60,000 nt of DNA from positions 87,608,001 to 87,668,000 of the forward strand of contig NW_024704742.1 of assembly GCF_018977255.1 (NCBI RefSeq). The letters run 5' to 3'. The position numbers and the translations under genes are program-made. This DNA is from Callorhinchus milii (lineage: Eukaryota). Each line of letters begins with the position of its first letter. The first letter of the stretch is position 1. Under the pieces are notes generated by a model, which saw only the letters and a program-made list of their open reading frames with translations, searched no databases and was not told the DNA's origin. This document shows positions 34,101-42,175 of this stretch, in pieces.

Positions 34101-34206
34101 CTTTATCTTCTTGAAATCCACAGGTTTTCGGATAAGCTCGTAGTATTCAGGCAGCTCTTTTCGAGAGGGTAGTTGGATGAAAACCTCGCTCAACTGTCGA
34201 CCCATA
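34101..34206 (-). CDS. smarca2: smarca2 bromodomain exon, inverted relative to the other smarca2 exons
   Basis: Minus-strand 106-nt exon with AG acceptor (34208-34207) and GT donor (34100-34099). Encodes [35 protein letters not shown], the N-terminal part of the BRM/BRG1 bromodomain. Confidence 0.93.
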
Positions 34207-34929
34207 CTATTTTAAAGGATACATGTTTAAAGCAAAATCAGTTCTGCAATTGCACATCAGTCAAATAATAAAACACAAATTACATGACTTCAACTCAGAT
34301 TCTTTCCATTCTAGAGCCTGTTCTATATCATCCAAGCTTATTATTGCTTTGAGATTGCAGTAAAGTACAAAGAACCATTTATGATTGATTGATATGAGTG
34401 TCTCTTCTCCTCCAACCTACTGATAATAGTCTAGCATTGCAACTACTGCATTTTTATCTCACATTCCATAGCTACACAAAGTCCTTTTTTGCCAGCTGTA
34501 CCATTTACATAAAGCAGATAGCATATCTAGTTGCTTCAGTGATAAGTAACTAGATAGGTGGTCATGCAGCTCACACACTCTGGAATTGCTAACTTGCACT
34601 TATACAGTGTCTTTCAAACAGAACAAATGTTTCAAACTGCTAAATTATGATAGGGAGAACCTATCACCTACCATGTATACTTAACCTAACACAGTTAATC
34701 CAGAGACAATAAAGAGTGGACTCCAGATATGAACAATGTCATTTTGGATTCTTATCATGGTTCACATTTAAGAAAAGCCAGATTGTTTGGGGCAAGCATT
34801 GAGAATTCTAGAAATTGTGCATTGGAAACCAAGAGCAAGCTTTTGTTAAATGCAGTACATGCTTGATAACGTGTCATTCCAAGTGAAAAGGGTTCAATGA
34901 CAAGTTATCAGGAGGGTGAGTTGGGCATA

Positions 34930-34954
34930 NNNNNNNNNNNNNNNNNNNNNNNNN
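34930..34954. other. assembly gap (25 N)
   Basis: Run of N. The true size is unknown. Confidence 1.
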
Positions 34955-35450
34955 TCCAAAATTCTGCACCAATCTTAAAAATACAGACGGTAATAAGGCC
35001 AAGGCTATGAGGAAATTTGAGCTTCTCAATCGGAAAATAAAATAAAAATGTTTTAAAACGGTGCAGGCCTGCCTCCGTGGCTCGCTTGGTAAGAGTGACG
35101 CTAAGTGATGCTTGAAGACTTTCCTCTTTGACTGTGCCTCCCCCCTTGCCCCATACTATGACTCAATCTACGACTGTTTGTGGGATGCTGCTACTCGTAA
35201 TTCGCTGCCACGTTTCGCTCATCAATCCATTTTAAAATATATTCTGTGAGGCGCTTTGAAACGTCTCAATGACGTGATGCACAGATTATTATTAAGTGCT
35301 CTGAGACTCTACCTCACATGCAGAGCACTATATACTCAAGAGCACACAGCATTGTCTATGTTATTCTGTGATGCAAATCAGGAGATTCTTGTTTTGATCC
35401 CTCATGTGTCCTGAGTCAAGGAACTCAGGACAGATGAGGCATCCAAACTA

Positions 35451-38675: not shown

Positions 38676-41517
38676 CATAAGAACATAAGAATTAGGAGCA
38701 GGAGTAGGCCATTCGGCCCTTCGTGCCTGCTCCGCCATTCAATAAGATCATGGCTGATCTTCTCACCTAACTCTGATTACCTGCCCTATCCCCATATTCC
38801 CTAATCCCTCTATCTTTCAAGAATCTATCAGTCTCAGCCTTGAAATAGTTCAAGGACTGAGCATCTACAGCCTTCTGGGGTAGTGAATTCCATACGTTCA
38901 CTACCCTCTGAGTGAAGAAATGTTTCCTCAACTCTGTTCTAAGAGGCTGACTCTTAATTTTAAGACTGTGACCCCTGGTTATAGATTCTCCTACCAGGGG
39001 AAACAGTCTCTCAGTGCCTACGTTATCCAGCCCTTTAAGAATCAATATGATCCCCCCTAATTCTTCTGTACTCTAGAGAATACAGCCCTAGTTTATTCAA
39101 CCTATCCTCATAGGTCAGTCCCCTCATCCCAGGAACTAACCGAGTGAATCTACGCTGCACCCCCTCTAGGGCAAGTATGTCCTTTTTTAAATAAGGAGAC
39201 CAAAACTGCACACAATACTCTAGGTGCGGTCTCACCAAAGCCCTATACAGTTGCAGCAAGACTTCCCTACTCTTATATTCTAAACCTTTCGAAATGAACG
39301 CTAACATGCCGTTCGCCTTCTTAGTTGCTTGCTGCACCTGCAAACTAACTTTTTGGGACTGGTGTACAAGGACACCCAAATCCCTTTGAATACTAACACT
39401 ATCTAACTTCTCCCCTTCCAGAAAATAATCTGTTCTTTTATTCTTGCTACCTAGGTGAATAATTTCACACTTGCTAACATTGAATTCCATCTGCCACCTA
39501 CTTGCCCACTCCCCTGCCTATCTATATCTTGTTGCAATCTTTTTGCATCATCCTGAGAGCTCACTCTGCTACCTAGTTTAGTATCATCCGCGAATTTAGA
39601 CACATTACATTCAATGTCCTCGTCCAGATCATTGATGTAAATGGTAAATAGCTGAGGCCCAAGCACTGATCCTTGTGGCACTCCACTAGTTACATCCTGC
39701 CAATTCGAGAATGATCCGTTTATCACTACTCTCTGCTTTCTACCCGATAGCCACTCTTCTATCCATGTTAATATTTTCCCATTAATCCCGTGGGCCTTGA
39801 TCTTGAGTAACAGCCTTTTGTGTGGCACCTTGTCAAATGCCTTCCTAAAATCCAAATATACCACATCTACTGGTTCCCCCTTATCCAACCTGCTGGATAC
39901 ATCCTCAAAAAATTCTAAAAGGTTAGTCAAGCATGACTTCCCTTTTGTAAAGCCATGTTGACTCTGCCTAATCTTTTTATGGTCTTCCAGGTATCCCATA
40001 ACTACGTCTTTTATTAAGGACTCAAGAATTTTCCCTACAACTGACGTCAAACTAACTGGTCTATAGTTTTCCCTATTTTCTCTCCCACCCTTCTTAAATA
40101 GTGGAGTTACGTTTGCAATCTTCCAATCAATGGGAACTTTTCCAGTATCCACAGACTTTTGGAAGATTATAGACATGCCATCCACTATCTCAGTAGCCAC
40201 CTCCTTTAAAACTCTCGGATGCAGGCCATCCGGTCCAGGGGATTTATCGGTTTTAAGACCCGACAATTTACCTAGAACCATCTCTTTACTAATGTTAATC
40301 TCCCTAAATTGCTCGCTAACATTGTCTTCTTGGTCCTCTATTTTTGGTATGTTTCCAGTGTCTTCGATTGTGAAGACTGTAGAAAAATACATGTTTAATG
40401 ACTCTGCCATGTCTTTGTCCCCTATTATAATTCCTCCGGTCTCTGCCTGTAATGGACCCACATTCACCCTCGCTAGCCTTTTCCTCTTTATATATTTGTA
40501 AAAACTCTTGGAGTCTGTTTTTATGTTCTTTGCTAGTTTGCCCTCGTAATCTATTTTCTCCCTCTTGATCAATTTTTTGGTCCTCCTCTGTTGTTCCCTA
40601 AAGTTCTCCCAATCCTCGGGTTTACTACTCATCTTCGCTGTTTTATAGGCTTTTTCTTTTGATTTGATACTTTCCCTAACTGCTCTAGTTAGCCATGGCT
40701 GCACCACCTTTCCCATGGCATTCTTATTCCTCAAAGGAATATGTGCTCGTTGGGAATTTTGCACTATCTCCTTGAATGTCTGCCATTGCTGGTCTACCGT
40801 CAAATCTTTAAGTTTAGTCTCCCAGTTTATTCTGGCTAAATCCTCTCTCATACCAGCAAAGTTGGCTCGATTTAAATTGAAGACTTTTGCTTCAGACTTA
40901 ACTACTTCCCTCTCTAACTTAACGCTAAATTCCATCATATTATGATCGCTTTGCCCTAGAGGAGCCTTAAGTTCCAGTTTGCTGATCAGCCCTGTTTCAT
41001 TACACAAAACAAGGTCTAATATGGCTTGTTCCCTGGTCGGCTCCTCAGCATATTGATCTAGAAAATTATCTCTAATACATTCTATAAACTCCTCTTCTAT
41101 GTTACCTTTCCCAATTTGGTTGTCCCAGTCTATGTGCAGGTTAAAATCACCCACAATTAGTGTCTTTCCTTTGCTACATGCTCCACTAATCTCTTGATTT
41201 ATACCTTGAGCGATACTTTGACCACTGTTTGGGGGTCTATAAACTACTCCCACTATAGTTTTCTGCCCCTTGAAGTTACGTATCTCTACCCATACTGACT
41301 CTACATCTTGCTTTTCAGATTTAAAATCTTTCCTCTCTACTGTTTTTATCCCATCCTTTATTAGCAGGGCCACTCCCCCTCCTCGTTTACCACATCGCCT
41401 ATCTTTCCTATATACCACGTAGCCGGGAATATTCAGTTCCCATCCCTGATCACCCTGTAACCATGTCTCGGTGATGGCTACTAGATCATACCGGTTTGTC
41501 TCTATTTGTGCAACTAT
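38676..41517 (-). mobile_element. CR1-clade LINE, nearly complete ORF2 (APE endonuclease plus reverse transcriptase) and 3' UTR, 5'-truncated
   Basis: ORFs 39451-41601, 39035-39490 and 38767-39045 join across two frameshifts. Motifs AITETW, VGDFN, SDHN, KSPGPDG, YRPVSLTS, LDFRKAFDKVPH, GVPQGSVLGP, KFADD, RPHLEYCVQFWSP. The 3' tail is (TTCTTATG)-like at about 38676-38692. Confidence 0.97.
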
Positions 41518-42073
41518 TTTGGATGTTTTGGCTAAATGGTTCTGATGCCATTGGGCAAGTTTTTTGCCTTTTCTTTTTTTCAAAACTAACATTTTGGACA
41601 ATAAGGATCCCTGATTGAGTTTTTATTAAAAAAACTAAATCTAATTCTAAAGTCTAATTATTTCTGAGTAGCTCAGACCAGCAGTCTAAATCTCCAGTTT
41701 ACCATTTAGAGGATTTGTAATTGAAATAAATAGTGTAAATGAACAATTGATTATGAAAACTGGCATGGTAACTGCAAAAGGGCAGAGATTAAAAATATCA
41801 GGAATTTATCGAGGAGGGTTGGCAAAACCACTCCATGCTGTTCAGCGCACAGCATTGTTTGTGCTGATATGTGGCCTGTTTAGCAGCCAGAGTGTGATTG
41901 GTGATGATATAGCAATGCCATTAACAAAACAACTGGCTTATTTTTAAAGTTAAAATTATATAATGTGAGTGATTTGTATAGCAAGTATATTTTATTAACA
42001 AATATCGCAATCGCATATTCATAGATGTTCTTTATATAGAAAACCTAATTCTTTAAAAATGTGGGATTTGCAG

Positions 42074-42175
42074 GAACGCATCCGCAACCACAAGTATCGG
42101 AGCCTGGGAGACCTGGAGAAAGATGTCAATCTGCTGTGTCATAATGCTCAGACATTCAACTTGGAAGGATCACAG
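42074..42175 (+). CDS. smarca2: smarca2 bromodomain exon (ERIRNHKY...EGSQ)
   Basis: ttgcAG / GTcgg boundaries, 102 nt, phase 0-0. Encodes [34 protein letters not shown]. The residues GDL, CHN and GSQ fit SMARCA2 rather than SMARCA4 (NDL, CQN, GSL). Confidence 0.95.

Follow-up and report, generated by a model that had tools for sequence, protein, structure and literature searches.

The analysed window, 60,000 nucleotides of the genome of the elephant shark Callorhinchus milii, contains parts of dmrt1 and smarca2 and is located on a chromosome scaffold (C1). Parts of both genes were also found on an unplaced scaffold of the same assembly with a length of 470,678 bp (C48). The DM exon of dmrt1 was found at C1:87596546-87596860, and the RefSeq model P0121 was 100% identical across it. 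Together with the DM exon, DMRT1-specific downstream exons in conserved order identified the gene as DMRT1. Exons 2 and 3 and a micro-exon were located on C1, the micro-exon being the final dmrt1 coding exon ahead of a strand switch, and the final two coding exons were located on C48. Exon 3 was present on C48 as well (441232-440942, minus strand), in an overlap between the two scaffolds that reached 1,895 bp beyond the left end of the window. The coordinates of the features are given in Table 1.

Two exons of the smarca2 bromodomain were found on opposite strands, as described in the initial annotation, and the placement of the exon ending in DFKKIK on the minus strand and of the exon starting with ERIRNH on the plus strand was confirmed by translation and splice sites. 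In a search of solved structures, the two peptides matched residues 31-64 (E 2.8e-17) and 65-98 (E 1.8e-17), respectively, of the SMARCA2 bromodomain chain 9dty_A. The peptides adjoin in one chain, and the exons are therefore consecutive. The ERIRNH exon scored higher against SMARCA2 (63 bits) than against BRG1 (55 bits). Both exons are contiguous in the protein, and the Callorhinchus milii proteins P0031 and P0242 cross the exon junction, which identified the bromodomain as that of SMARCA2. The opposite-strand exon pair is no chance resemblance. The sequence between dmrt1 exon 3 and the inverted exon was free of N, in agreement with the earlier statement that the two lie on one gap-free stretch.

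Table 1. Features of the dmrt1-smarca2 region in the window (positions are those of the window)
Feature	Position	Strand	Basis
Left flank, dmrt1 introns 2-4 and exons	1..33601	+	Shared with C48:468781-435333, in reverse orientation there
dmrt1 exon 3	27704..27994	+	RefSeq model P0121 residues 166-262, tblastn 99% identity
dmrt1 21-nt micro-exon (RNESDEK)	29020..29040	+	Six-frame peptide search; AG acceptor, GT donor
Switch point 1 (BP1)	33601..33602		Left dmrt1 intron, right smarca2 intron reversed; abutting BLAST segments
Tip 1: smarca2 intron and DFKKIK exon, 1,328 bp	33602..34929	-	Equals C48:2359-3687, up to the last base before the gap
smarca2 bromodomain exon ending DFKKIK	34101..34206	-	Translation, AG acceptor and GT donor; P0031 residues 1367-1397
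25-N scaffold gap	34930..34954		N-run scan
Tip 2: reversed dmrt1 intron, 2,380 bp	34955..37334	-	Equals C48:432960-435332; directly after 33601 in normal order
Switch point 2 (BP2)	37334..37335		Divides a SINE copy between SINE positions 50 and 51
smarca2 intron also present at the C48 start	37335..39694	+	Matches C48:1-2358 in reverse complement, with 0.85% substitutions
smarca2 bromodomain exon starting ERIRNH	42074..42175	+	Translation, AG/GT splice sites, tblastn of P0031
Further 3' smarca2 coding exons	43880-43987, 44383-44580	+	tblastn of P0031, 100% identity

Strand switches had been expected at 28.0-34.1 kb and 34.2-42.0 kb, and both were found and located to the exact base (BP1 and BP2). 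At BP1, where the flanking 30-mers were compared, no overlap or loss was seen between the BLAST segments, and a search of the own genome divided the query at 202|203. The SINE copy divided by BP2 was unbroken only in the normal arrangement of C48. Between the switch points two short tips were separated by a gap of 25 N, and no further N run of at least two was present across the 180 kb scanned (C1:87,538,001-87,718,000). Tip 1 was 99.9% identical to C48, with no substitutions and a single one-base indel. Tip 2 was 99.4% identical, with two indels and seven substitutions, all within 36852-37268. Positions 33602-37334 on C1 were thus the exact reverse complement of C48:435332..432960, the gap and C48:3687..2359 taken together, and both seams were blunt, without any added, missing or shared base. 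In a self-BLAST of the window the inverted exon occurred only once and the seams carried no pair of inverted repeats, and Tandem Repeats Finder reported nothing relevant at either seam.

The full interior of 432,974 bp was found once, on C48, in normal order and with both normal junctions. It contained the final two dmrt1 exons (428895-428719 and 402442-402296), two DM domains (384.4 kb and 349.4 kb), and smarca2, for which 24 matches spanned residues 235-1397 (tblastn of P0031 against C48 up to 60000). All of these features were on the minus strand. The DM exon at 384.4 kb showed a 77% match to a shark dmrt3-like protein, and the two further DM-domain genes are labelled dmrt3 and dmrt2 by position only. 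The true locus most likely reads, as C48 shows, dmrt1, two DM-domain genes and then smarca2, on one strand throughout. According to the initial annotation the interior was either deleted or hidden in the gap. Deletion was contradicted, and the sequence proved to be hidden in the sense that it sits whole on the unplaced scaffold. Among 1,762 contigs, C1 and C48 were the sole holders of these sequences in a search of the own genome. A further unplaced scaffold, examined at its start (C49:1-6000), had no chromosome counterpart over that stretch beyond dispersed repeats. The left flank differed between C1 and C48 by 78 substitutions across 23.8 kb, tip 2 by 7, and the right flank by 20 across 2.36 kb. 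When read in C1 order, the differences formed one block at 36852-39694 beside one near-identical block at 24400-36851. The blocks were slightly tidier in the inverted order of C1 than in normal order.

A balanced two-break chromosomal inversion is marked by reciprocal new adjacencies with a strand switch and by an inverted interior between the breakpoints. The adjacencies were present, on this scaffold only (C48 counterparts 435333|435332 and 2359|2358). The inverted interior was not, as 1,328 and 2,380 of the 432,974 bp were found between the breakpoints and the rest was represented by the 25-N gap. The anomalous block did adjoin a scaffold gap, equal the reverse complement of the true flanks and end in blunt seams. 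An exact reverse complement with blunt seams is what a flipped patch must yield. The probable explanation is accordingly an assembly error, in which a patch made of the gap flanks was inserted backwards between two contig ends. Two contigs, one ending at 33601 and the other starting at 37335, would have been joined over a gap, and the 433 kb between them left on C48. The contig ends would then have been extended into the gap, by 2,380 bp on the left and 1,328 bp on the right, and the extensions linked by a minimal spacer of 25 N. If this extension block was placed in the scaffold whole and as its reverse complement, the smarca2 exon would come to lie backwards beside dmrt1 exon 3. A gap-extension step presumably made the backwards patch. 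In the long-read gap filler PBJelly, 25 N is the smallest run treated as a gap, and gaps are called overfilled when both flanks have been extended and do not meet (PMC3504050). Table 1 of PMC12952989 gives the assembly recipe as PacBio CLR reads, Falcon, Dovetail Chicago/Hi-C and HiRise. A literature search returned no account of a gap filler run on this assembly, that methods table being the sole description found, and no precedent for a backwards-inserted patch.

A heterozygous inversion in a diploid long-read assembly would show an equal local picture. In that case the sequenced animal would carry, in the heterozygous state, a genuine 433-kb inversion, rare or private, that is broken in an intron each of dmrt1 and smarca2, which is unlikely but has to be taken seriously. 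C48 would represent the normal haplotype, and the C1 contigs would follow the inverted one for 1.3 and 2.4 kb past the breakpoints and end there, the shared interior having already gone into C48. Both reciprocal junctions were present and gap-free, which random chimeric reads would not yield. The substitution counts further indicated that neither of C1 and C48 is a copy of the other and that the two sequences are independent, and the divergent and identical stretches were single blocks in the inverted order. Such an inversion might also confuse the Hi-C placement of C48. Against this, both junctions were perfectly blunt and conservative, and perfectly blunt seams are uncommon for a two-break repair event. 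The tips also abut a 25-N gap, and the knockout of two conserved genes lowers the prior. Sex linkage of the putative inverted allele is conceivable. According to PMC12952989, the holocephalan X fragment reported in silver chimaera is not the counterpart of the chicken Z/dmrt1 region, and a sex-linked reading is therefore unsupported. In the literature search, no dmrt1-smarca2 inversion turned up for this species. Neither a reversed patch nor a heterozygous inversion accounts for the 470-kb scaffold staying unplaced.

Contigs from four other samples were compared with positions 31500-39700 of the window, and 32 of about 132,800 pieces were listed. Such contigs can show the presence of a junction, not its absence. 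In sample X7, record 26 linked 33136-33601 (plus) directly to 37334-36803 (minus), which is the normal junction. The alignment of record 10 from X5 ended exactly at 33601 with 107 letters over, and that of record 23 from X6 ended exactly at 37334 with 113 letters over. The matching contig depth suggests that these leftover letters belong to the normal partner. The normal junction was thus seen directly in one of the four samples and, by this reasoning, in two more, at ordinary contig depth; for X4, no listed contig reached BP1. None of the 32 listed pieces spanned 33601|33602 or 37334|37335, which counts against an inverted haplotype, although short-read contigs are unable to bridge BP2, a position within a SINE (word depth near 1e6). 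The normal-junction contig of X7 carried chromosome-type letters at 36985-37137, and the C1-type haplotype of tip 2 therefore occurs un-inverted, a further point against heterozygosity for an inversion. A lack of support for contiguity across 28-34 kb, named in the initial annotation as grounds for abandoning the inversion, was indeed observed in the animals examined, which were other samples and not the reference animal.

Gene models of the species span both breakpoints. Older-annotation and UniProt models of Callorhinchus milii joined dmrt1 exon 2, present only on C1, to the final two coding exons, present only in the C48 interior, and the corresponding SMARCA2 models read ..DFKKIKERIRNH.. 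A fixed, species-level inversion or deletion breaking dmrt1 and smarca2 in the elephant shark has next to no probability. What speaks for it is the chromosome scaffold itself and a RefSeq dmrt1-like model, truncated at 274 aa, that derives from this scaffold, and nothing else. It was refuted by C48, which has every missing exon in normal order, by the normal junction in other animals, and by the existence of full-length SMARCA2 models and DMRT1 models running from exon 2 to the last exon. The inversion originally proposed, with breaks in dmrt1 intron 3 and a smarca2 intron, was correct in its geometry, since BP1 lies after exon 3 (strictly, after the micro-exon) and BP2 between the bromodomain exons, but was not supported as a biological inversion. 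A single event disrupting both genes was likewise unsupported, as C48 was normal, only 1.3 and 2.4 kb were inverted, and the contigs of other animals and the older gene models were normal. The inversion is most likely a property of the chromosome scaffold and not of the elephant shark genome.

Chimeric contig ends, arising from chimeric long reads or from false overlaps through dispersed repeats such as SINEs, are a highly improbable source of the arrangement. BP2 does lie inside a SINE, and other SINE fragments were found at 33019-33165 and 35161-35278. BP1, however, was free of repeats on both sides, and the SINEs of the left flank and BP2 were co-oriented in normal order, so that a false overlap would cause sequence to be skipped rather than flipped. 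It is also very unlikely that two independent chimeras arose at exactly reciprocal bases. That a small, isolated duplicate of the smarca2 exon was inserted in inverted orientation in the dmrt1 intron can hardly be credited at all, and no point in favour of this was found. The exon piece was held once per representation and not as an extra copy, and the order to its right was gap, reversed dmrt1 intron and smarca2 intron, which is not the pattern of an insertion. The alternative offered in the initial annotation, a small duplication flanked on either side by further dmrt1 intron homology, was contradicted by this copy number and flank order.

A reversed gap patch would matter mainly to users of the reference genome. 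The chromosome-scale scaffold is without 433 kb that include the final two dmrt1 coding exons, two DM-domain genes and most of smarca2. Because this sequence sits on an unplaced scaffold, dmrt1 is split in the public annotation into two partial models of 274 aa (chromosome) and 235 aa (scaffold). For SMARCA2, the scaffold-placed model includes residues encoded only on the chromosome. Reading the chromosome alone risks a false broken dmrt1, a false loss of dmrt2 and dmrt3, or a falsely rearranged synteny block. The suggested repair is to swap positions 33602-37334 of the window for the reverse complement of C48:2359-435332. If a heterozygous inversion were true instead, dmrt1 would be truncated after the DM domain and lose its final two coding exons, and smarca2 would lose its last four coding exons, including the end of the bromodomain. 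A cartilaginous fish would then offer a natural allele, of a rare kind, that disrupts dmrt1.

The arrangement resembles heterozygous inversions in diploid long-read assemblies, where the alternate haplotype stays behind as an unplaced contig, in that one locus is present twice, with the orientation differing between two exact points, and in that the two copies differ by 0-1%, which is haplotype-like. It differs from them in an interior present once, in blunt junctions and in inverted junctions that appeared in no independent sample. Truncated or rearranged sex-chromosome copies of dmrt1, such as dm-W, are duplicated, fixed and sex-linked, with expression and genetic evidence. The truncated dmrt1 arrangement described here is, unlike these, known from the scaffold sequence alone. 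A dmrt1 allele of this kind would resemble such copies in keeping the DM domain and losing C-terminal exons (for dm-W of Xenopus laevis, see PMC9250109). The extension block is wholly reverse-complemented here, a feature absent from the description of PBJelly overfilled gaps in the available part of English et al. 2012 (PMC3504050). In other respects the locus resembles such overfilled gaps, with two short extensions that do not meet, a residual minimal run of 25 N, and a true gap whose 433 kb greatly exceed the size implied by the scaffold gap.

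Translation placed two consecutive smarca2 bromodomain exons, one ending in DFKKIK and one starting with ERIRNH, on opposite strands, as the initial annotation had read them. The two exons match residues 31-64 and 65-98 of a single SMARCA2 bromodomain chain of solved structure (9dty_A). The inverted DFKKIK exon was correctly described as lying on the same gap-free stretch as dmrt1 exon 3, because the sole real gap in the window is to the right of the exon. The first dmrt1 exon, just upstream of the window, was 100% identical to a Callorhinchus milii RefSeq protein. Several DMRT1 proteins of sharks and rays contain the RNESDEK residues of a dmrt1 micro-exon and one (P0129) lacks them; the micro-exon may therefore be alternatively spliced.

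The window occupies C1:87,608,001-87,668,000, C1 being the chromosome scaffold. The assembly consists of 991.5 Mb in 1,762 contigs, and an assembly search revealed a second copy of positions 34000-34300, 100% identical, on C48, an unplaced scaffold of 470,678 bp. The layout of C48 was determined by local BLAST of C48 stretches against the window. Its gene content is on the minus strand, and C48 in reverse therefore shows the gene order usual in vertebrates: dmrt1, two DM genes and then smarca2. At 37335 the final 2.4 kb of the reversed scaffold enters the window and leads to the ERIRNH exon. The sequence between the breaks had been supposed to be deleted or hidden in the gap; it is indeed missing from the chromosome scaffold (C1), but it is not deleted, being present on C48. 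As a consequence, both middle DM-domain genes are wholly absent from the chromosome scaffold.

Coordinates of features in the window and, where prefixed, on scaffold C48
Feature	Coordinates	Strand	Remarks
dmrt1 exon 3	27704-27994	+	
dmrt1 micro-exon RNESDEK, 21 nt	29020-29040		after exon 3; AG/GT borders
smarca2 exon ending DFKKIK	34101-34206	-	translation; AG and GT borders
Scaffold gap, 25 N	34930-34954		right of inverted DFKKIK exon
smarca2 exon starting ERIRNH	42074-42175	+	translation; AG and GT borders
Further smarca2 3' exons	43880-43987, 44383-44580	+	
SINE family, ~310 bp	6881-7193, 29642-29945, 52724-53046, 58628-58958		abundant; tRNA-like end
Fragments of the same SINE family	33019-33165, 35161-35278, 37335-37404		
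Reverse complement of 37335-39694	C48:1-2358		98.8%
Equals 33602-34929	C48:2359-3687		99.9%; end exactly at gap
No counterpart on C1	C48:3688-432959		
Equals 34955-37334	C48:432960-435332		99.4%
Reverse complement, 33601 leftwards to 1,895 bp before window start	C48:435333-470678		
dmrt1 last two coding exons	C48:428895-428719, 402442-402296	-	
DM-domain matches	C48 384.4 kb, 349.4 kb	-	2 of 7 in genome
SNF2 helicase exons	C48	-	
SMARCA2 residues 235-1397	C48	-	24 tblastn matches; last = DFKKIK exon, C48:2951-2859

The stretch C48:462000-470678 (window -1895 to 6000) showed dense one-base indels against the chromosome copy, 6-13 per 2 kb, with very few substitutions, a pattern that poorly polished contig ends typically show. 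A 26-bp minisatellite forms two blocks in dmrt1 intron 2, at 21912-23146 (~47 copies) and 23778-24391 (~24 copies); it aligned to C48 with many indels, and its length therefore seems to differ between the two copies. Single isolated Ns occur every ~30-50 kb, at 59452, at C48:27743, 34639, 38167 and 43574, and at C1:87591390, 87569861, 87676323 and 87711071. On the plus strand downstream of smarca2, overlapping open frames at 47000-48450, one with a YADD-type reverse-transcriptase motif, are probably a decayed LINE. Several plus-strand open frames at 57000-59900 carry cysteine-rich, LDL-receptor class A-like repeats with a DCxDGSDE-type motif, and are presumably VLDLR-like; VLDLR is the usual neighbour of SMARCA2.

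Strand switches had been expected at 28.0-34.1 kb and 34.2-42.0 kb, and BLAST against C48 located them at 33601|33602 (seam 1) and 37334|37335 (seam 2). Between the seams C1 has 1,328 bp, the 25 N and 2,380 bp. Together these are the exact reverse complement of the first 2,380 bp of the 432,974-bp interior, the gap and the interior's last 1,328 bp. The two seams were blunt, with 0 bases lost, gained or shared. Block and flank sequences were found by genome search on C1 and C48 only, and a query across seam 1 broke at 202|203, its halves lying at two separate places on C48. No repeat was observed at seam 1. Seam 2 splits a SINE copy between element positions 50 and 51, and since only the C48 order leaves this SINE intact, the C48 arrangement is the older one. 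It is unlikely that the seams were made by chimeric reads or by misjoins through repeats, since two independent errors at exactly reciprocal bases would be needed and the available SINE fragments would lead to a skip, not a flip.

The older RefSeq DMRT1 model P0256 (302 aa) and the UniProt models P0255 and P0258, the latter two presumably derived from the older assembly, join exon 2, present on C1 only, to the last two coding exons, present in the C48 interior only. SMARCA2 models run uninterrupted through DFKKIKERIRNH. In the current annotation dmrt1 is split into two partial genes, P0121 (274 aa, C1) and P0257 (235 aa, C48). The last exon of P0121 encodes five residues (MSVVF, 31895-31909) without counterpart in the other cartilaginous-fish DMRT1 proteins compared, and probably represents a forced end to the model, the true last exons being located on a different scaffold. 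About 175 C-terminal residues of the SMARCA2 models P0242 and P0243 (1,574 and 1,575 aa), recorded on C48, are encoded only on C1, and these models must therefore have been completed from other evidence.

Contigs from other animals gave the same picture of a normal arrangement as the DMRT1 and SMARCA2 gene models. Among 13 public runs under the species label, four samples of one 2025 study (X4-X7) contained 81-85% of the sampled words, and their contigs were compared over 31500-39700. X7 record 26 (995 bp) covers 33136-33601 and then runs unbroken from 37334 back to 36803, which is the normal junction. The alignments of X5 record 10 and X6 record 23 end exactly at 33601 and 37334, with 107 and 113 letters left over; because their contig depths (7 and 8.16) are shown again by variant sites on the side of the normal partner, we infer the same junction. 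No X4 contig among those listed reached seam 1. Chromosome-type letters at 36985-37137 were found on the normal-junction contig of X7 and C48-type letters in X4-X6; both haplotypes of that stretch therefore segregate, and the chromosome type exists un-inverted. The chromosome-type seams were crossed by none of the 32 contig pieces listed, out of ~132,800, and such contigs are no proof of absence; SINE word depth of up to ~1e6 in the short-read contigs blocked bridging at seam 2. The normal order on C48, the normal junction in X7 and the junction-crossing gene models exclude a fixed species-level inversion or deletion, and give no support to the proposal of one inversion disrupting both dmrt1 and smarca2.

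Two readings are left, a heterozygous inversion and an assembly product, the remaining probability falling on other artefacts. A real 433-kb inversion carried by the reference animal in heterozygous form is improbable. C1 and C48 do behave as independent haplotype-like sequences, differing at 78 sites by substitution over 23.8 kb of the left flank, at 2 over the 9.2 kb adjoining seam 1, at 0 and 7 in the smarca2-derived and dmrt1-derived parts of the block and at 20 in the right flank, and the divergent sites form a single block in chromosome order. A true inversion in a diploid string-graph assembly could also stop contigs just beyond each breakpoint. Against this stand the blunt junctions, the lack of independent support for inverted junctions among the contig pieces listed, and the disruption of two conserved genes that would follow. 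There is also no connection to the holocephalan X fragment reported in PMC12952989.

We consider it probable that the 3.7-kb block arose during assembly. Both joins are wholly blunt and conservative, the inverted sequence is only as long as a read overhang, the block adjoins the 25-N gap on both sides, and reverse-complementing this single block regains the normal sequence. According to the methods table of PMC12952989, the chromosome-scale assembly of the species was made from PacBio CLR reads with Falcon, Dovetail Chicago and Hi-C, and HiRise. In the literature searched, use of a gap filler on this assembly was undocumented, and no precedent was found for a patch inserted backwards; both points count against an assembly product. 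In favour of an assembly product, 25 N is the smallest run that PBJelly counts as a gap, and the 'overfilled' class of that tool comprises two flank extensions failing to meet (PMC3504050).
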